This document shows, in pieces, positions 8,741-59,730 of a stretch of DNA of 64,000 nucleotides. Position 1 is the stretch's first letter. Every line of letters begins with the position of its first letter. The notes beneath the pieces were generated by a model. The model did no database searches and was not told the DNA's origin. It saw only the letters and a program-made list of their open reading frames with translations. The position numbers were made by a program, and so were the translations under genes. This stretch comes from Parcubacteria group bacterium Gr01-1014_17 (GTDB lineage Bacteria; Patescibacteriota; Minisyncoccia; Phycocordibacterales; UBA10002), in assembly GCA_007376285.1 (NCBI GenBank), contig VMFZ01000001.1, positions 11,033 through 75,032 of the forward strand, in the 5' to 3' direction.

Positions 8741-11700
8741 TTAAGAACGGGTGCGGGGACGGGAACGAGGACGCAAACCAGCATCATTGTCGCCTTTCTT
8801 ACCGCCCTGCAAATCAGCATCAAGCGCAAGCCCGCGCAAGTTGTTCAAAAGCACGCTGAAAGATGCCGGCACGCCGCTGTAGGAAATCGGCTCGCCTTTG
8901 ACAATTGAATCAAATGCCGCGGCGCGTCCCGGAATGTCGTCAGACTTGATGGTAAGCATCTCGCGCAAGGTGTACGCCGCGCCGTGCCCCAAAAGCGCCC
9001 ACACTTCCATTTCACCGAAACGCTGACCTCCGCCTTGCGCTTTGCCGCCGAGCGGCTGTTGGGTAATCATTGAATAAGGTCCTATGGAACGCATATGAAT
9101 TTTATCTTCCACCATATGGTGGAGCTTCATAATGTACATCGTGCCGACCGCGATGTCTTGCGCAAACGCCTCGCCCGTGCGGCCGTCGTGCAACTTCATT
9201 TTCCCGCTCCGCTGAAAACCCGCCTTCTCAAGTTCGTCTTTTATTTCTGCATCCGTCGCGCCAGCAAACGGCGGCACGATCGCTTGATAGCCGAGCGAGC
9301 CCGCGGCAAGCCCTAAGTGCAATTCCAAAATTTGCCCGAGGTTCATACGCGACGGAACGCCAAGCGGGGTAAGTATGAGGTCAATCGGAGTGCCATCTTC
9401 TGTAAACGGCATTTCCTCAACCGGCAGGATTTTTGAAATCACGCCTTTGTTGCCGTGCCGCCCCGCGAGCTTGTCGCCGACCGACACTTTCCGCAATTCC
9501 GCAACTTCAATATGAATGCGCTTCAAAATGCCGCTCTCCAATTTGTCGCCGTGCTCGCGCGAAAATACTTTCACGCTGATGATGCGTCCGCGCTTGCCAC
9601 CTTCCATACGCTTTGAAGTATCTTTCACATCGCGCGCTTTTTCTCCAAACAGCGAACGCAATAGCCGTTCTTCGGGCGTCAGCTGGGTTTCGCCTTTTGG
9701 CGTAATCTTGCCGACCAAAATATCTCCTGGGCGGACTTCTGCGCCGATGCATATCACACCGTCTTCATCAAGATTTTTGAGCTTCGCTTCTCCAACATTT
9801 GGAATATCGTGCGTCGTGATTTCGGGTCCGAGCTTAGTGTCGCGCACATTTACCACAAATTCTTCAATATGGATGGAGGTGAATTTACTCTCGCGCACTA
9901 ACCGTTCTGAAATGATAATTGCGTCTTCGTAGTTCGCACCTGCCCACGACATAAACGCAACAAGCACATTGTGTCCAAGCGCCATCTCTCCACCCTCGCT
10001 TGAAGAGGTATCTGCGAGAAGTCCTCCTTTCTTTACTTTGTCGCCTACGGACACCGCAGGCCTCTGATGAAACGCAGTAAAGCCGTTGGTCCGCTGGAAC
10101 GGCACAAGTGGGTACGAGCGTTCCTTTCCTTTCACATTTTTCACAGATACGCGCCGCGCGTCTACAAATGACACAACTCCTTCTTCTTCCGCAAGCACAA
10201 GGCGCCCGGTGTCGCGCGCCGCCTTGCCTTCAATGCCGGTAGCGACCAGAGGCGCCTCGGGCACGAGACATGGCGTCGCTTGCTTTTGCATGTTTGAACC
10301 CATCAGTGCGCGGTTCGCGTCATCGTGATTCAAAAACGGAATCATTGAGGTCGTAATGGAAAACGCCTGATTGGTCGCTACATCAATCAAATTCACATCA
10401 GTCGCACGCACCATCGCCGGCGCGCCGTTTACGCGCACTTCCAATTCTTGCTCAAGTAAGCGGCCGTGTTCGTCGCGGAGCGATGCCGCGTGCGCAATCT
10501 TGTGGCCCTCTTCTTCCGATGCGCCGAAATAAACAATCTCTTTAGTAATCACGCCATCTTTCACCCGCGCGTACGGTGTTTCAATCATACCGAACTCATT
10601 CAACCGCGCATAATTTGACAAACGCAAAATGAGTCCGATGCTTCCGCCCTCAGGTGTTTGGATGGGACACAACCGCCCGTAGTGCGATGGGTGCACATCG
10701 CGCACTTCAAACCCTGCGCGCTCGCGCGTCAGGCCTCCGGGTCCAAGAGCAGACACCGTACGCAAATGCTCAATTTCCGCGAGAATATTTTCCTGTTGCA
10801 TAAATTGCGACAACTGGTTGGTCGTGAAAAACTCACGAATCCGCGCCTGTAGGGGCTTTGGGGAAATGAACTGTGACGGGAGCGTTAGGTCGGATTCAAC
10901 TGTGGACATTCTGTCTTGCAAATTGCGCTTCATTTGCGTCATACCCACGCGCACTTTTTGCTCCAGAAGCTCGCCGACAAAGCGCACGCGCCGGCTTCCA
11001 AGGTGGTCAATATCGTCTTCCACAGCGCCCGGCGTGGTGGAAAGTTTTCCGACATGCGTAACGGCGGTTACCACATCATCAAGCGATAAAGTCATTCGTT
11101 CCGACTCTTTGTCGGTCATCAGTTTTTCGAACCGGCGATTAAAACGAAACCGCCCAACCTTGGAAAGGTTATACCGGTCAACATCAAAAATTGATTTCAC
11201 AAAAGTGCGCGCGGTATCTGGTGTGGCGATCTCGCCGTCGCGGAGACGCTTGTAAATTTCCAGATACGCTTGCGATACTTCTTTTGCGTGGTCTTTCGCA
11301 AGCGTGGCCGTGATAAAGGACTCCACTGCAGTGCCGGCAAAAAGCGCCTTGATTGCATCGTCGGTTTCCGCACCCAAAATACGGAATAAAGAAGAGAGCG
11401 GGAACTTGCGCTTGCGGTCAATGCGCACATAGATGGCTCCGTCAGGGTCGGTGTCTATCTCAATCCACGCGCCGCGCGCGGGCATAATCTTTGCGCCAAA
11501 ATATTTTTTACCCTTCGCTTCTTCCGCAGTAAAAAAGACACCGAACGAGCGCGCGAGTTGCGGCACGATGACGCGTTCAACACCGGAAATAACAAAAGTC
11601 CCATGGTTGGTCATTAGCGGCACATCCGACATAAAAATCTCCTGCTCTTTTTCGGTACCCGCGAGTTTGTTTTTCAACCGCACGACAGCTTTGATAGATG

Positions 11701-12001
11701 CCTCATACGAGAGCTTGTTCGATTTTGCGGAATGTTCATCGCATTTCGGCTCCGAGATTGTAATACCGGAAAATTCTAGTTCAAACTTTTTGCTAGAATA
11801 ATCGCGTATCGGAGAAAACTCCTTAAACACTGACTTTAGACCCTTTTCCAAAAACCAGCGGAATGAATCCAGTTGGGGTTCAACAAAGTTTGGGTATTTC
11901 GCGAGCGGCTCGCGAAAATTCCCGAAATACTTCTTAGGACGCTTTGCAACGCCCGCGACATCAATGGCAATTCCCATATAATTGGAACGCAATAAAAACA
12001 A
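8741..12001 (-). CDS. rpoB: DNA-directed RNA polymerase subunit beta
   Basis: 1086 aa; conserved rpoB blocks (GRHGNKGV, NMQRQA-like); immediately upstream of rpoC. Confidence 0.98.
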   Translation of the reverse strand: MFLLRSNYMGIAIDVAGVAKRPKKYFGNFREPLAKYPNFVEPQLDSFRWFLEKGLKSVFKEFSPIRDYSSKKFELEFSGITISEPKCDEHSAKSNKLSYEASIKAVVRLKNKLAGTEKEQEIFMSDVPLMTNHGTFVISGVERVIVPQLARSFGVFFTAEEAKGKKYFGAKIMPARGAWIEIDTDPDGAIYVRIDRKRKFPLSSLFRILGAETDDAIKALFAGTAVESFITATLAKDHAKEVSQAYLEIYKRLRDGEIATPDTARTFVKSIFDVDRYNLSKVGRFRFNRRFEKLMTDKESERMTLSLDDVVTAVTHVGKLSTTPGAVEDDIDHLGSRRVRFVGELLEQKVRVGMTQMKRNLQDRMSTVESDLTLPSQFISPKPLQARIREFFTTNQLSQFMQQENILAEIEHLRTVSALGPGGLTRERAGFEVRDVHPSHYGRLCPIQTPEGGSIGLILRLSNYARLNEFGMIETPYARVKDGVITKEIVYFGASEEEGHKIAHAASLRDEHGRLLEQELEVRVNGAPAMVRATDVNLIDVATNQAFSITTSMIPFLNHDDANRALMGSNMQKQATPCLVPEAPLVATGIEGKAARDTGRLVLAEEEGVVSFVDARRVSVKNVKGKERSYPLVPFQRTNGFTAFHQRPAVSVGDKVKKGGLLADTSSSEGGEMALGHNVLVAFMSWAGANYEDAIIISERLVRESKFTSIHIEEFVVNVRDTKLGPEITTHDIPNVGEAKLKNLDEDGVICIGAEVRPGDILVGKITPKGETQLTPEERLLRSLFGEKARDVKDTSKRMEGGKRGRIISVKVFSREHGDKLESGILKRIHIEVAELRKVSVGDKLAGRHGNKGVISKILPVEEMPFTEDGTPIDLILTPLGVPSRMNLGQILELHLGLAAGSLGYQAIVPPFAGATDAEIKDELEKAGFQRSGKMKLHDGRTGEAFAQDIAVGTMYIMKLHHMVEDKIHMRSIGPYSMITQQPLGGKAQGGGQRFGEMEVWALLGHGAAYTLREMLTIKSDDIPGRAAAFDSIVKGEPISYSGVPASFSVLLNNLRGLALDADLQGGKKGDNDAGLRPRSRPRTRS

Positions 12002-12263
12002 AAGAAAACAAAAGCCCTCGCCAAGGCCTTTGTGGTGTGCTGCTAATTGTTATTTAGTTGTTCGAACGCAAAATGGCGCTCTATTGCTTACTAAAAAGCG
12101 TCCCGCGGAACTCAATCGTGTATATATCAAATGTACTCGGGCAGTATATACCCACTCATATTTTCTGTCAAATGCAAGTTTGGAGGGTGTGGATAACTCC
12201 CCCACTCGCAAAAACAGCCGAGTGCGCGGTCGGTTGTTTTTTTGTTCTTTCCCGCATCCGTCT

Positions 12264-12291
12264 ATACAGACATTTTGCAAAATGTCTGTAT
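12264..12291. promoter_or_regulatory. perfect 28-bp palindrome ATACAGACATTTTGCAAAATGTCTGTAT, copy 1, between arsR stop and the rpoB leader
   Basis: exact inverted repeat read in the sequence; identical copy at 12625-12652. Confidence 0.5.
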
Positions 12292-12325
12292 GACAAATGG
12301 CGATAAATGTTCTGTAATTAAACAA

Positions 12326-12604
12326 TTAGTTTTCCGACAGTTCTTTGCAGAAAGAGAGCACCGCTTCCGCCCGCTCGGTTATCTTGTGCCGCACCTCTTT
12401 TCCTTGATACCGTTTCAACACCAAACCCGCAATCGCAAGTTTTCGGATGTGGTCGGAAGTATTTTCATAATTTGAATCAAACGCTCTCGCAATTTCTATA
12501 ACGGACAGTTCCGGTTTTTTCTTAAGCAATGCCAAAATTGCTAATCGCCGATGGTTTGCAAAGCCCTTGATAATTCGCTCCAGTGGTCGCCCTTCAATAC
12601 TCAT
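12326..12604 (-). CDS. ArsR/SmtB-family winged-HTH transcriptional regulator
   Basis: 92 aa; HANHRRLAILALL..LSVIEIARAF..NTSDHIRKL HTH signature. Confidence 0.8.
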   Translation of the reverse strand: MSIEGRPLERIIKGFANHRRLAILALLKKKPELSVIEIARAFDSNYENTSDHIRKLAIAGLVLKRYQGKEVRHKITERAEAVLSFCKELSEN

Positions 12605-12624
12605 GTTGTCTTTATCTTACTCTT

Positions 12625-12652
12625 ATACAGACATTTTGCAAAATGTCTGTAT
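12625..12652. promoter_or_regulatory. perfect 28-bp palindrome, copy 2, 21-48 bp upstream of the arsR start (candidate autoregulatory operator)
   Basis: identical to 12264-12291; 12-2-12 architecture typical of ArsR-family operators. Confidence 0.5.
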
Positions 12653-12661
12653 ATACCACAG

Positions 12662-12728
12662 ACACCCGATGTTTGCCGCCTATTCCGCCTCATCGGCGGA
12701 TCGCCGAAAAGGAGACAACATTGGGTGT
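12662..12728. repeat. GC-rich nested palindromic element (family H: ACACCCGATGTTTGCC..CGCCTCATCGGCGG.TCGCCGA..GACAACAT.GGGTGT)
   Basis: long hairpin; family members at 21924, 23229, 31789, 32761, 35328, 37280, 46531, 54121. Confidence 0.7.
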
Positions 12729-12887
12729 TGGGTGGTTTTGAGTTATCAACACCCGGTTGTAATTTTCATGTAGACAGTATATACTGTTTGCGTGTCTGCG
12801 GGACGTCAGTCCTATCTAGCCATATTCTGCGCTGGAGACAGGCACACTAAAGGACACCGCTTATCGCGGTGTTTTTTAGTACCTCTT

Positions 12888-14372
12888 CTACTTCGGTCGC
12901 AAAGTCGGAAAAAAAATCACATCCCGAATATTATGAGAATCAGTGAGAAGCATCACGAGGCGTTCAACGCCGATGCCGACACCGCCGGCGGGCGGCATAC
13001 CGTATTCAAGCGCTTCCAGAAATGATTCATCGGATGGTTCGGCTTCCGCGTCCCCCGCTTTGCGCCTGCGTTCTTGCTCTTCAAATCGCGCGCGCTGTTC
13101 TATGGGGTCATTCAATTCTGAAAACGCTTTAACAAGCTCAACACCTCCTGCATAGAGTTGGAATGCATCAACGAGTGCTGGGTTTTCTTCTTTGTTTTTT
13201 GCAAGCGGGAGCATATCTTTCGGATAATCAATTACAAATGTCGGCTGAATGAGCTTTGGCCGCACCGTGCGCTTAAAAAGCGCGTCAAGAATTTTTTCGC
13301 GCGTATCCCCTTCTTTTACTGAAGCGCCAAGCCGCTTTCCGGCAAGCAGAAGCGCATCGGAAGATGCTCCGGCTGGATTTGGAATAAGCGCATAGCGTTC
13401 AATCAATTCAAAGTAGGAGGCAGTTGCAAATGGTTTGCTAAAATCAATCTCAACTCCTTCGTGTGATATTTTTGTTTTTCCAAGCGCCACCTTCACCACC
13501 GTTTTCAATACTTCCTCGACAAACGCGCGCTGGCGCGCGGCATCGCTATACGCTTCGTACCATTCCACAGTGGTAAATTCTGGATTGTGCGTAACATCAA
13601 TACCCTCGTTTCTGAAGCTCCTGCCGATTTCAAACACTTTCGGAAACCCTCCGATAAGCAACTTTTTCAAATCAAGCTCTGGCGCAATGCGTAAAAACAA
13701 GCCGACGCCCAAAGCATTATGATGCGTCTTAAATGGCTCTGCGTTGGCGCCTCCAGGAATTGGCTGAAGCATTGAGGTTTCAACTTCCAAAAACCCGTCA
13801 TCGTTTAAAGAGCGCCGCAATTCCGACACAATGCGCGAACGCAAAATAAATCGCGTGCGCGATTCTTCATTCATTAAAGTATCAAGATAACGCTTGCGGA
13901 ACTGTTCTTCCGTATCGGTAAGCCCAGCCCATTTTTCTGGAAGCGGGCGAAGCGCTTTCGCAAGCATCCGCCATGATGCAACTTGCAGTGTTTCTTCCCC
14001 GCTTTTTGTTTTGAAGAGAGTACCGCTCGCTTCTACAAAATCCCCAATATCTACCACTTCATTCCACAGTTCAAACGCTTCTGTTATATCGTCTTTTTTA
14101 AGCAATCCTTGGAAATTACCCGTGCCGTCATTAAAGTCAAAGAAAATTAGCGCGCCCTGCGCGCGCATCCCCATCACGCGCCCAGCAAGTGTTACGGACT
14201 TTTTCTTCGCCAGCGCCGCGAATTTTTTGCGCGCGTCCACAAGCGCGCAGTCAGGACGCGCGGAAATTGGATACGGCGAAACTCCGCGCTCGCGGAGCAA
14301 CTGCAATTTTTTCAGGCGCACTGCGCGCAATTCTTCAAATGAAGACATAGATAATTTATTAAAATTATTCAA
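12888..14372 (-). CDS. lysS: lysine--tRNA ligase (class II)
   Basis: 494 aa; N-terminal OB anticodon-binding domain and class II catalytic motifs. Confidence 0.93.
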   Translation of the reverse strand: MNNFNKLSMSSFEELRAVRLKKLQLLRERGVSPYPISARPDCALVDARKKFAALAKKKSVTLAGRVMGMRAQGALIFFDFNDGTGNFQGLLKKDDITEAFELWNEVVDIGDFVEASGTLFKTKSGEETLQVASWRMLAKALRPLPEKWAGLTDTEEQFRKRYLDTLMNEESRTRFILRSRIVSELRRSLNDDGFLEVETSMLQPIPGGANAEPFKTHHNALGVGLFLRIAPELDLKKLLIGGFPKVFEIGRSFRNEGIDVTHNPEFTTVEWYEAYSDAARQRAFVEEVLKTVVKVALGKTKISHEGVEIDFSKPFATASYFELIERYALIPNPAGASSDALLLAGKRLGASVKEGDTREKILDALFKRTVRPKLIQPTFVIDYPKDMLPLAKNKEENPALVDAFQLYAGGVELVKAFSELNDPIEQRARFEEQERRRKAGDAEAEPSDESFLEALEYGMPPAGGVGIGVERLVMLLTDSHNIRDVIFFPTLRPK

Positions 14373-30713: not shown

Positions 30714-31766
30714 TCATTTATTTTGAGTATCGCAAAGTTTGATGATTGCCAATTCAATGGGAAGGTGTGGAAGGTGCGAGCGGCCGATGAGGTCATAGTA
30801 TTCAAGAAAAGTAAGAAGTGTCTGCGAAGTAAGCCCGCTTGCGGGAATCTTTTTCAGAAACGCAAAGTCGGCTTCGGAAAGTTCGCGCGAGATTTCTTTT
30901 TCCATATCCGGCGCGATGCGCAAGAGAAGCGCGAAGCGCATTTTTTGCAAAATAAGCTTCGCAAACACTTTCATATCGGTATGCGCCTCCGTCGCTTCTA
31001 CGACTGCCGACAACCCATCCTCCGCATTACGTTCAACAAGCGCCGCAATCACGCGGTTCGCAAGCTCACCTTTGGGCGCGCCGGTCACGCGAAGCACTTC
31101 TTCTTCTGAAATCTTTTTATCAGCAGAAATGGAAATTACTTTCTGCAAAATGCCGTACGCATCGCGGAACGAGCCGTCTCCCAAAAGCGCAATGAGTTCT
31201 GCTGACGCATGGCTCATCTCGTACCCTTCTCTCTTTCCGGCGCGGGCGATAATTTCGGCAAGCGTCTTCTGGCTCGGCTTCCGAAACGAGTGTAGCTCAC
31301 AGCGGGAAATAATGGTTTCCGGCACTTTATCAAGCTCGGTTGTTGCAAGAATAAAAACAACATGCGCGGGCGGCTCTTCCAATGTCTTGAGAAGCGCGTT
31401 AAACGCTTCTTTGGTAAGCATGTGCACTTCATCAAGAATGTAGACCTTGTAAGGCGATTCAAACGGAAGCGAGAGCACCGTCTCACGAAGCTCGCGCGCG
31501 TCTTCAATCTTGCGGCTGGACGCCGCGTCAATTTCTTGCAAATCAATATCGGCAGTTTTAAGAGAATGTGCGAGAATTCTTGCGACTGATGTTTTCCCAG
31601 TCCCGCGCGCGCCGGCAAACAGGTACGCGTGCGAAACTCTACCAAGCGCCAAAGCGCCAGTGAGCGCTTCCACTACATGCTCTTGCCCTACCACTTCGTT
31701 CCACTTTTGCGGACGGTATTTCCGATACAGCGCGGAAAATGATTCTTGCTTTTCTTTTGAATTCAT
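30714..31766 (-). CDS. dnaX: DNA polymerase III subunit gamma/tau
   Basis: YRKYRPQKWNEVVGQEHVV..GARGTGKTS Walker A, SRC motif; start at Met45 (ATGAATTCAAAAGAA). Confidence 0.9.
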   Translation of the reverse strand: MNSKEKQESFSALYRKYRPQKWNEVVGQEHVVEALTGALALGRVSHAYLFAGARGTGKTSVARILAHSLKTADIDLQEIDAASSRKIEDARELRETVLSLPFESPYKVYILDEVHMLTKEAFNALLKTLEEPPAHVVFILATTELDKVPETIISRCELHSFRKPSQKTLAEIIARAGKREGYEMSHASAELIALLGDGSFRDAYGILQKVISISADKKISEEEVLRVTGAPKGELANRVIAALVERNAEDGLSAVVEATEAHTDMKVFAKLILQKMRFALLLRIAPDMEKEISRELSEADFAFLKKIPASGLTSQTLLTFLEYYDLIGRSHLPHLPIELAIIKLCDTQNK

Positions 31767-32440: not shown

Positions 32441-32830
32441 CGCTTTTATACAAACATTTTGCCCTCCTCATCGGCGGGCAAGCAAAATGACTGGATACAC
32501 TATCTTTGGCGGTCGCAAAGTTTAGTGTATATAGAAAGTTCTACCATACTACAAAGTATGAGAGAAGAAATTAGAGCGAACGAAACTCGTTGAGGCGCGC
32601 AGGTTTGCAAACATGGGTAAGGCACGAAGCGAAATGCTTTTTCAAAATGTCTGGAGCGAGTGGTCGCATTGCAGCGACCCGAGCGTTACCGAGGACTTTT
32701 GTAAAAAGCATTTTGCGGAGTGTCTTCCTTTCAATGCGCGCCGAGAAAGAGTTCTAAGAGACACCAGATGTTTGCCATCTATCCCGCCTCATCGGCGGGT
32801 CGCCGAGGAGGAGACAACATCTGGTGTCAA
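32440..32830. repeat. mosaic repeat island A with four modules: ATTTTGCC..GGCAAAAT hairpin (32456-32488), ACACTATCTTTGGCG..AGTGT (32497-32528), AGAGCGAACGAAACTCGTTGAGGCGCGCAGGTTTG (32573-32607), family-H palindrome (32761-32828)
   Basis: modules shared in the same order and orientation with island B (37100-37530) and partly with 59604-59660. Confidence 0.7.
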
Positions 32831-35327: not shown

Positions 35328-35396
35328 GGCGCCCGATGTTTGCCGCCTATCCCGCCTCATCGGCGGGTCGCCGAGGAGGAGACAACATCGGGTGCC
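35328..35396. repeat. family-H palindrome immediately upstream of the ClpA/B-like start codon
   Basis: GGCGCCCGATGTTTGCCGCCTATCCCGCCTCATCGGCGGGTCGCCGAGGAGGAGACAACATCGGGTGCC. Confidence 0.7.
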
Positions 35397-37099: not shown

Positions 37100-37530
37100 A
37101 TTCTCACGAATTAGTCCATACAAGTATTTTGCCCGCCTCATCGGCGGACAGGCAAAATACTGAAATACACTATCTTTGGCGACCTCTAGAGATAGTATGG
37201 GTATTCGCCTGACTATTCCAACTACTTGCTATAGCAGTTAATTGGAATAGTGAATAGTAATAGTGATAAAAATCACGGAGGCACCAGATGTCTAAATTGC
37301 AGACATCTGGTGCCGAAAAAAGAGCGAGCAAACTCGTTGAGGCGCGCAGGTTTGAGACGCCCTTGCGCAATCTGAAAACACGAAAGCGAGGAAGTACCTA
37401 TGCCGAGACGGCGAGGAGGCGAACGGCCATGGACTCCCGAGCGAAGCGAGGGAGGAGTGAGCCGAGCGGATAAGGCAAAATTCCTCGGAGGGGAATTTTG
37501 CCGGTCTCGGCAGAGGTAGCTTCCGAGCGC
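37100..37530. repeat. mosaic repeat island B: ATTTTGCC hairpin (37126-37158), ACACTATCT element (37167-37197), PaaX-type palindrome copy 3 (37213-37250), GGCACCAGATGTCT hairpin (37280-37314), AGAGCGAGCAAACTCGTTGAGGCGCGCAGGTTTG (37321-37354), GGCAAAATTCCTCGGAGGGGAATTTTGCC hairpin (37474-37502)
   Basis: direct-repeat partner of island A. Confidence 0.7.
37288..37473 (+). CDS. putative 61-aa highly basic small protein (weak resemblance to the ribosomal protein S21 C-terminal half)
   Basis: GGAGG 8 nt upstream of an ATG that lies inside the hairpin arm; K/R-rich; a decayed fragment of the same ORF occurs in island A. Confidence 0.3.
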   Translation: MSKLQTSGAEKRASKLVEARRFETPLRNLKTRKRGSTYAETARRRTAMDSRAKRGRSEPSG

Positions 37531-38701
37531 TATTTTATTTCCCCCTTCCCCAAATACGGCACCAGCACGGGTGGAACGACGATACTTCCGTCTGCGCGCT
37601 GGTTGTTTTCCAACAAAGAAATCAGAAGGCGTGGCGTAGGCGCGGCGGTGCAATTCAGTGAATGCGCGAACTTTTGTTTTCCGTCCTTTTCTTTGTAACG
37701 AATGTTAAGTCGCCGCGTTTGAAAATCGTGGAAGTATGAGGCAGAACTTATTTCCCGATATCGCTTTTCTGATGGCACCCACAGGTTAATATCATATTTT
37801 TTCACTTGTCCGAGCCCGAGGTCTCCGCCGCAATTAGTAACCGTCTGGTACGGAATACCGAGCGCTTCCATAAACTCCTCTTCGTTGCGATTCATTTCTT
37901 CATGAAAGCGCACTGAGGTCTGGTGGCTCGCTTCGCAAAGCACTACTTGTTCACATTTAAAGAATTCATGCACGCGCATCAAGCCCTTCGTATCTTTGCC
38001 GTGGCTCCCCGCCTCACGCCGGAAACAAGGCGAGAACGCGATGAGCTTTTTTGGGAGTTCTTCCGCAGAAAACATGCTGTCCGCGAAATACGACATCACC
38101 GGCACTTCGGCAGTGCCTGCAAGATAATCGCCGTCCTGTGTTTTATACAAATCGTCTTCGCCCTGCGGAAGGTAACCGGTGCCGAGAAGCGCTTCGCGCC
38201 GAACGAGAGAAGGCGCCAGCATTGGCGAAAAACCTTTCTTCACAAAGAAATCAAAACAAAACTTCCAAAGCGCGAATGATAAAAGCGCGCCATCGTTTTT
38301 CAGAAAGTACCCGCGGAAACCAGATACCGCCGCGCCGCGCTCAAAATTCGCCATATCGTTTTTCAAAAGCAAATCAATATGGCTTTTCGGTTCAAAAGCA
38401 AACGCTGGCTTCTCGCCCCAACTTCGCACTTCGGCATTGTCCGCATCGCTTCCTCCTTCCGGTACGGAAATATCGGGCACATTCGGCACTTGGAGCATCA
38501 GTGTCTGCCATTGTTGCGTCGCTTTTTTCAGACGCCGCTTTTGCGATTCTGCTCCGCGCGCTTGTTTTCAACAACCGTGAGAAGTGCGCGGCGCTCGTCG
38601 TCTACGGCAATAAGTTCTTCCACTTTGAAATCGACGCACTTCTTCCGCGCCGCCTCGGCAACAAGTTCTTTGTTTTCTCGGATGAATTTTATATCCAACA
38701 T
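37530..38701 (-). pseudogene. serS: serine--tRNA ligase gene interrupted by a +1/-1 frameshift at an A6 tract (N-terminal 57 codons 38528-38701; catalytic part 37530-38498)
   Basis: N-fragment MLDIKFIRENKELV...AEQNRKSGV* matches the SerRS N-terminus, and the 322-aa ORF is the class II catalytic core starting near VPNVPD. Frames differ by 1 nt around GTCTGAAAAAAGCG. Confidence 0.8.
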
Positions 38702-59555: not shown

Positions 59556-59730
59556 AAACCGACTCGCGACCCGTAAGTACTTTTGTACTGCGGGTCTGTT
59601 TTTTATACAGCTATTTTGCAAAATACTGAAATACACTATCTATGGCGACCGCAAAAGTTAGTGTGCACGCATTTAGCATTAAGATACGGCCGTAGCTTAT
59701 TGCTACAAAATCCTACCCCAACCCCCTCCT

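Follow-up and report, generated by a model that had tools for sequence, protein, structure and literature searches.

A small ArsR/SmtB-fold regulator gene of the Paceibacteria and the two palindromes that are its putative operators

The window analysed here is a stretch of 64,000 nt from Parcubacteria group bacterium Gr01-1014_17 (contig VMFZ01000001.1, positions 11,033 to 75,032), which contains a gene for a 92-aa winged-helix regulator bracketed by two identical palindromes, named O1 (upstream of the start codon) and O2 (at the 3' end). From the comparison of homologous loci we consider it likely that O1 and O2 are the cognate operators of a repressor encoded between them, and that the gene and its two sites form a self-contained, negatively autoregulated unit across the Paceibacteria, a group of ultra-small groundwater bacteria. 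The unusual feature is the second operator, which is universal in the family, is normally written in the last codons of the regulator gene, and occurs in a lineage for which the literature searched describes no regulator-operator pair. Nothing relevant to the regulator family or to the motif was found in the searchable literature on Parcubacteria, Patescibacteria or the Candidate Phyla Radiation (CPR).

The 28-mer ATACAGACATTTTGCAAAATGTCTGTAT is present in exactly two copies in the window, at 12264-12291 and 12625-12652. No third match was found in the window with up to three mismatches, and 100 shuffles gave none. The preliminary description of this DNA had reported two identical copies, and these are indeed exact, with a chance expectation of none; its 12-2-12 layout has to be corrected, because the spacer is absent and each copy is a perfect palindrome reading 14|14. 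In its full extent the putative promoter-proximal operator O1 covers 12624..12653 (15+15 nt, perfect), and throughout the family this site keeps its place over the core promoter. The putative 3'-end operator O2 covers 12263..12291 and is the same as O1 across 29 nt. The regulator gene lies between them on the minus strand (12326..12604). The centre of O1 is located 34-35 nt upstream of the regulator ATG, with its 28-mer copy ending 20 nt before the ATG (12604), while O2 begins 34 nt past the stop codon and has its centre 51 nt after it. A TAAGAT hexamer (12614..12619, minus strand) at +20..+25 from the O1 centre is the predicted -10 element of the regulator promoter; it was read from the sequence, fits the family pattern, and is separated from the ATG by nine nt.

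The regulator is 100% identical to the hypothetical protein G01um101417_21 of Parcubacteria group bacterium Gr01-1014_17, and many Paceibacteria lineages contain homologues of it, about 1500 in all, with a length near 90 aa and an identity of 60-73%. A look-up of its contig by exact sequence gave no record. It matches the Pfam families HTH_20 (score 29.4, cut-off 27) and HTH_5 (25.5, cut-off 22), and the metalloregulator ArsR/SmtB family of NCBIfam (NF033788) scores it 49.9, below the cut-off of 55. According to its AlphaFold 2 (AF2) model, which has a predicted local distance difference test (pLDDT) value of 84, the protein is of the ArsR/SmtB fold, with the topology alpha1-alpha2-alpha3-alpha4-beta1-beta2-alpha5 (helices 6-15, 18-29, 35-41, 46-58 and 77-91; strands 62-67 and 70-75). 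The top Foldseek matches to the model were CadC, SmtB, SqrR and HlyU with template modelling (TM) scores of 0.73-0.82, and HlyU was also the best sequence match among solved structures (E = 1e-9). No second paralogue of the regulator was detected in the window by tblastn. In an alignment of 38 members, the recognition helix Y-E-N-A/T-S-D-H-I-R-K-L-A-I-A-G-L is nearly invariant, and Cys86 in the last helix (alpha5) is the sole invariant cysteine. The metal or metalloid sensors of the ArsR/SmtB type have a cysteine motif in alpha3/alpha3N (ELCVCDL type) or an Asp/His/Glu ligand set in alpha5. These known motifs are absent from the 38 aligned members, in which alpha3 reads ELSV(I/E)EIA without cysteine and alpha5 has no ligand pattern.

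By both sequence and structure, the closest known systems are the ArsR/SmtB autorepressors (SmtB, CzrA, CadC, HlyU, SqrR), which have the same fold. Like these, the regulator is small and presumably dimeric, with a palindrome of ~26-30 bp over its own promoter. It differs from them in lacking the known sensing sites and scoring below the cut-off for NCBIfam metalloregulators, in being a solo gene, with no gene for efflux, detoxification or the like as its conserved partner, and in having a second, equally conserved operator-like site at the 3' end of its own gene. Another protein of similar build is AspA, the ArsR-like centromere-binding protein of the Sulfolobus plasmid pNOB8, which is a winged-helix protein of about 90 aa and binds a palindrome upstream of its own gene. 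Over 72-74 residues its fold superposes on the regulator with a root-mean-square deviation of 1.1-1.5 A, and the two match by profile at E = 7e-5; the regulator genes, however, are chromosomal, solo and multi-copy, and there is no parA or parB nearby.

For comparison, we collected 77 further genes of the regulator family with their flanks from 75 distinct loci, giving 78 genes with that of the window. They come from Kaiser-, Adler-, Nomura-, Taylor-, Lipton- and Niyogibacteria and other lineages. Palindromes with the core TTTTGCAAAA were found at all 78 genes, both upstream of the start and at the 3' end: O1 was detected at 70 genes by a strict test and at the remaining 8 by a position-weight-matrix scan, and O2 at every gene. 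The consensus half-site is CAAAA-n-ACTAGAATA, with the arm variants GTTAGAATG and GTTTGTATA; the variant of the window is GTCTGTATA. In the largest group, a -10-like hexamer (TAGAAT, TACAAT or TAAAAT) is located at +19..+24 from the O1 centre and is followed by exactly 6 nt and the ATG. Other family members have TGTGTATAAT, again followed by six bases and the ATG. This geometry predicts a regulator mRNA with no leader or almost none. O1 would sit between the -35 and -10 elements of the predicted regulator promoter, its core TTGCAA being -35-like, and the inverted repeat overlaps the gene's own predicted promoter in 78 of 78 cases. It had been suggested earlier that the palindrome is an ArsR-type operator and that the regulator controls its own gene. 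Both suggestions are made likely by the comparison, given a promoter palindrome and a second copy at the 3' end of each of the 78 homologous genes, and the predicted ArsR/SmtB fold.

Several genomes contain two to four paralogous regulator units with differing arm classes (ACT versus GTT), among them JAUSGQ01 (L039 with two genes, L036 and L078) and JBBUAA01 (L025, L029 and L056). The differing arm classes of paralogues in the same genome suggest orthogonal specificities. In locus L011, one gene is preceded by three tandem operators at a spacing of 123 nt, and 8 kb off lies another complete unit.

In 72 of the 78 genes O2 lies within the regulator gene and occupies its last ten codons and the stop, and in 69 of these 72 cases exactly 13 nt separate the O2 centre from the stop codon that follows. 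The conserved C-terminus ..S-I-L-V-F-C-K-K/R-L-E/Q-stop is encoded by the palindrome itself (TCT ATT CTA GTG TTT TGC AAA A(A/G)A CTA GAA TAG). Inside O2, phenylalanine is encoded by TTT in 72/72 positions, compared with 34/74 in the rest of the same genes; the corresponding counts are 100/105 and 201/396 for lysine AAA, 101/144 and 40/663 for leucine CTA, 37/38 and 43/282 for serine TCT, 44/44 and 224/433 for glutamate GAA, and 25/27 and 22/538 for arginine AGA. Synonymous codons are nearly fixed inside O2, compared with the rest of the same genes, and this shows selection on the DNA sequence itself. The gene of the window belongs to a clade of six members in which O2 is located 40-72 nt past the stop codon and the C-terminal codons are relaxed (TTC, TGT and others). 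The residues F-C are kept in this clade despite the relaxed codons, so they also matter to the protein. The external position of O2 is probably derived, judged from its rarity in the family. O2 was also considered as a duplicated promoter-operator serving the downstream gene, and this was rejected, as no -10-like element is found downstream of O2 at the position seen with O1.

Because O2 is transcribed within the mRNA, the palindromes could instead act as folded RNA or single-stranded DNA hairpins (an mRNA 3' stabiliser, a terminator or a REP-like repeat), with the regulator as a passenger or as a hairpin binder. Many of the palindromes are perfect past 15 nt per arm, some over 19-26 nt, which is beyond the need of a protein. 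Further, five palindromes in four genomes keep both arms despite a GC-rich hairpin inserted exactly at the centre. Two are in the window (32447..32497 with the 21-nt insert CCCTCCTCATCGGCGGGCAAG and 37117..37167 with the 21-nt insert CCCGCCTCATCGGCGGACAGG), and others split in the same way, at TTTTG^CAAAA, are found at L036:14272-14332, L078:11063-11111 and L085:1541-1600. The inserts are 19-31 nt long and 12-15 of the 15 arm positions are still complementary; the loop motif AGCTTTAGCG is common to those of L036 and L085, whose stems differ, and the same 15-mer hairpin as in the window inserts is found at the apex of other hairpins in the window. Arms kept around such inserts make more sense if the element folds as a hairpin than if it works as a duplex operator. 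It is conceivable, as speculation, that the insert lengths (19, 21, 21, 30 and 31 nt), being near two or three helical turns, would allow two dimers on one face of the DNA.

Other features argue against hairpins and for a duplex site. With the TAAGAT hexamer nine bases before the ATG and O1 further upstream, O1 is predicted to lie outside the regulator transcript. Mismatches in the arms show no bias of G-U over A-C (36/25 in O2, 19/31 in O1). Although the in-gene copies of O2 are markedly asymmetric (position 6 pairs in just 10%), their conservation extends to the individual bases. Covariation of symmetric positions reaches no further than about 15-18 nt to either side of the palindrome centre, which is the size of a protein site. 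The core of the palindrome is invariant across the family, as is, very nearly, the recognition helix, and by eye there is a correspondence between the class of the arms (ACT, GTT or GTC) and the residues of the beta-wing: GRDV or AKSV is found with n-GTT, NEGSAV-like sequences with n-ACT, and QGKEV of the window with GTC, and paralogues in the same genome differ in their arms. The palindromes are AT-rich and are followed by no T-run, and a terminator scan passes them over while listing the separate hairpin at 12210-12241, in agreement with the earlier opinion that they are not simple terminators. Searched against Rfam 15 at the gathering threshold, the whole window yields three tRNAs and nothing else; at an E-value threshold the matches in 11950-12900 are at chance level (E = 0.4-0.9), and the regions of the orphan sites described below likewise gave nothing meaningful. 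The palindromes do resemble REP/BIME hairpins in being short, repeated and intergenic, often after terminators and with nested hairpin inserts. They differ in being tied, in every genome, to one regulator gene at fixed positions relative to promoter and stop, and in their low copy number (about one orphan site per 20-40 kb), with no RAYT-type transposase seen. Taken together, we regard the hairpin explanation as improbable.

The location of the unit in the window raises a second alternative. On the minus strand, the gene order is greA, lysS (12888-14372), the 92-aa open reading frame (ORF), rpoB (8741-11977) and rpoC. In the direction of transcription, lysS is followed by a 70-nt hairpin, O1, the regulator gene, a 34-nt spacer, O2 and a hairpin flanked by A/T runs, past which come the rpoB promoter, a leader of ~160 nt and rpoB. 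The hairpin with flanking A/T runs (12210..12241) is like a bidirectional intrinsic terminator and, with a terminator at the same place in L004, is the predicted end of the regulator transcription unit. The 70-nt hairpin directly upstream of O1 (12662..12730) carries the repeated 15-mer CCGCCTCATCGGCGG at its apex, and L004 has a homologous hairpin upstream of O1 without the apex insert; this element may insulate the unit from lysS read-through.

The preliminary description placed the second palindrome in the rpoB leader, and proposed that the regulator may control rpoBC by occupancy upstream of rpoB or by gating read-through. O2 is on the same strand, 288 nt upstream of the rpoB ATG, and a protein bound there could physically halt polymerases coming from lysS or from the regulator gene. 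The site does not belong to the leader, however. It is located ~93 nt upstream of the -35 element of a near-consensus predicted rpoB promoter (TTGACA-17-TATACT, 12143..12171, minus strand, conserved in L090 and L095), and the terminator-like hairpin with its T-run (12241-12210) stands between. O2 also travels with the regulator gene whatever gene comes next, and in most of the family it is inside the regulator coding sequence; among the 78 units, rpoB is downstream in that of the window only. The 72 downstream neighbours belong to 94 Pfam families and the 75 upstream neighbours to 86, none of which occurs more than 3-4 times, and among these neighbours no conserved partner or operon companion of the regulator gene was found.

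The closest relatives, found through LysS, bear most directly on this point: L095 and L096 (89% identity) and L090 (87% identity). L095 and L096 have greA-lysS-rpoB without the regulator gene, the lysS stop abutting GTTATCCACAC..TTGCATTTGACAG of the rpoB promoter. L090 has the same three genes with an unrelated insert of ~330 nt at the lysS-rpoB junction, which contains no palindrome. The conservation of the site upstream of rpoB in relatives had been proposed as a check, and its absence there as a refutation, and in all three the regulator and palindromes are absent while the rpoB promoter and whole leader are >90% identical to window positions 12195-11950. The proposal of rpoBC control is largely refuted by these relatives, and we hold it very unlikely. 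By the same comparison, the adjacency to rpoB appears to be an accident of where the unit is located in this genome, and any stopping of read-through towards rpoB would be a side effect in the window and not the conserved function.

Since the relatives have an intact rpoB promoter and leader and lack the unit, the segment 12196..12887 of the window (minus strand, ~690 nt) is an indel that carries the whole unit, comprising the hairpin after lysS, the 70-nt hairpin, O1, the regulator gene, O2 and the terminator. Two identical palindromes are both direct and inverted repeats, and could therefore mediate excision, inversion or insertion, so that they might be sites of recombination or bound a small mobile gene cassette. 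The indel between the lysS stop and the rpoB promoter, the different insert of L090 at the same junction, a genomic context that differs in nearly every genome, and up to four paralogous units per genome would all agree with mobility. The palindromes are not the termini of the segment, however, as the ends of the indel are 235 and 68 nt further out, and they were rejected as such. Moreover, one of the supposed ends is inside coding sequence in most members, no recombinase or transposase is associated with the unit, no target-site duplication was seen, and no relative of the regulator family was found in 2.9 million viral contigs. We give mobility through the palindromes very little credence, slightly less even than control of rpoBC. 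The junction itself is empty in L095 (L095:3331-3335) and likewise in L096, holds an insert with a 61-aa ORF in L090 (L090:5053-5400) and the 690-nt unit in the window, and on this comparison it looks like an insertion hot spot.

If O1 and O2 are operators, the repressor bound at O1, between the -35 and -10 elements, would block RNA polymerase by promoter occlusion. O2, which is conserved in the family, is probably an auxiliary operator, for which two modes of action can be considered. It could raise the occupancy of O1 by bridging the roughly 360-bp gene (looping), or it could stall polymerases that escape O1 (roadblock), as Lac repressor does at lacI O3. LacI bound at O3 at the 3' end of lacI stops lacI transcription, and the truncated product is SsrA-tagged and degraded (PMC3711431). 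Where O2 is inside the gene, as in 72 members, transcripts cut short by a roadblock would lack the stop codon. In the window O2 is past the stop codon and the terminator comes next, which leaves two possible roles for the site, anchoring a loop or adding a further barrier against read-through.

The likeness to the lac auxiliary operators (lacI O3, and the lac O2 inside lacZ) lies in the combination of a main promoter operator and an auxiliary one a few hundred bp away, and with lacI O3 in particular in the position of the auxiliary site at the 3' end of the repressor's own gene, which holds here for 78/78 genes. Lac repressor belongs to an unrelated protein family, and the present regulator has no known tetramerisation. 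The main operator here would control the repressor's own gene, so that both sites would serve autoregulation. The auxiliary site here is also shared by the whole family, in which the last ten codons and the stop normally spell it, that of the window being past the stop. We may imagine a two-stage self-control, in which initiation is blocked at a leaderless promoter, polymerases are stalled in the gene's own 3' end, and the product of the stop-less transcripts is destroyed, with the operator written in the last ten codons and stop; the lineage of the window would have uncoupled the two by shifting the operator just past the stop. This detailed scheme is tentative, and on balance we doubt it more than we believe it.

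Several points weigh against the operator reading and its mechanism, besides the long perfect arms and the kept arms of the split palindromes. The support is comparative sequence analysis throughout. In the window, a roadblock at O2 would give no stop-less mRNA and an intrinsic terminator comes next, so that O2 looks partly redundant. Proteins of the ArsR type are dimeric, and the regulator has no evident domain that might bridge two sites. The spacing between O1 and O2 (272-390 nt) shows no helical phasing (Rayleigh test, 70 spacings, periods 9.5-12 bp, p at least 0.07); as it is unphased and largely set by gene length, looping receives no positive support from it, and the case for looping is somewhat weakened. 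From its sequence, no sensing site can be named in the 92-aa regulator. Finally, a functional theme was looked for among the genes beside the orphan sites, and none was found.

These orphan sites, operator-like palindromes without a regulator gene, number about 30 across 1.1 Mb of family loci, and one was found in 54 kb of relatives chosen regardless of the motif. The degenerate copy noted earlier near 59604 is a real site of the family type, TATACAGCTATTTTG|CAAAATACTGAAATA at 59604..59633, located after a terminator and followed by the conserved block CACTATCTATGGCGACC. It has 8 differences from the 28-mer; the core is intact, the left half is window-type with 2 mismatches, and the right half CAAAATACTGAAATA is the half-site used by other family members. 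In L085, a contig from Hainich groundwater, both the site and its flank are conserved, and the right half is window-type. In a relative syntenic with the window at 56.5-60.8 kb (L086 and L082) there is a perfect palindrome of the window type, and no regulator gene lies less than about 6 kb from it. The genes beside orphan sites are diverse, including two ECF-type (extracytoplasmic function) sigma factors, GNAT, an HD-domain protein, RelB, a flavoprotein and a DNA methylase. The orphan sites are consistent with a small regulon, in which the regulator's own gene is, by this comparison, the only universal target.

A conserved block CACTAWCTYTRGCGRYCGC..AAAG..TAGTGT directly follows the orphan palindromes at 32498-32530, 37168-37200 and 59634-59665, and also both sites of L085. 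The block can form a second hairpin and contains TATCT(T/A) at +19..+24 from the palindrome centre, which is the -10 position of O1. A promoter of a small transcript is one possible reading of the block, and a component of a composite repeat is another. The core 10-mer TTTTGCAAAA occurs in six copies in the 64 kb, three of them without arms of the family type (30943, 48901 and 52522); the copy at 30943 is inside a different palindrome, GCGAAGC..GCTTCGC.

The 15-mer CCGCCTCATCGGCGG occurs in 10-11 copies in the window compared with 0.25 expected, at 12685, 32463, 32784, 35352, 37133, 42154, 46664, 50325, 50341 and 56879 (and 5029), all but one on the plus strand, and it is located at the apex of larger hairpins. 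Three of these hairpins form a family of ~70 nt (12662-12730, 32752-32825 and 35328-35395) with compensatory changes in the outer stem and no Rfam match. We also found a purine-rich intergenic segment of ~170 nt at 37375-37544 that is about 74-79% conserved in metagenome relatives, with counterparts at L086:6989-7155 (directly after the perfect palindrome), L082:129-295 and L084:5438-5634. A related repeat, AAACTCGTTGAGGCGCGCAGGTTTG, is present at 32588 and 37331. The segment has no Rfam match and may be a non-coding RNA.

Adjacency to lysS was considered as a conserved feature of the unit and was rejected, as lysS is 5 kb off in L005 and the regulator gene is convergent in three Nomurabacteria (L016, L050 and L057), where it lies 12-20 nt from lysS-greA; in the window lysS is upstream. 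The recurrence of lysS beside the unit may be chance. On the plus strand, a promoter-like site TTGTAA-17-TATACT is present at 12757-12785, with a hairpin and T-run (ACACCGC..GCGGTGTTTTTT) downstream of it at about 12854-12880, and the region 12757-12880 could give a transcript of ~85 nt antisense to the lysS-regulator spacer. In the rpoB promoter and leader region (minus strand, 12171-11978), the leader ends in a hairpin that resembles a terminator and has a T-run (12033-12008), with 20-30 nt left to the ATG; this region, >90% conserved in L090 and L095, may be an attenuator.

For annotation, these results are a warning against reading the palindrome as a control element of rpoBC. The comparison also exposed a lysS-rpoB junction that takes different inserts in sister lineages, and hairpin repeats that insert at palindrome centres. 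To our knowledge, almost nothing is known of transcriptional control in the CPR, whose members cannot be grown alone. The unit described here offers a concrete and widely conserved candidate regulator-operator pair for this group. Its 30-bp motif is defined, its promoter is predicted to be leaderless and it comes in several classes of specificity, so that it can be put to a direct test in vitro or in a surrogate host. An operator placed in the last codons of its own regulator gene is a strong natural example of dual coding, and the embedded second site suggests a two-stage self-repression like the roadblock at lacI O3. If true, this two-stage device would be a conserved and compact form of negative feedback, in which the sequence of a protein is constrained by its own DNA-binding site.

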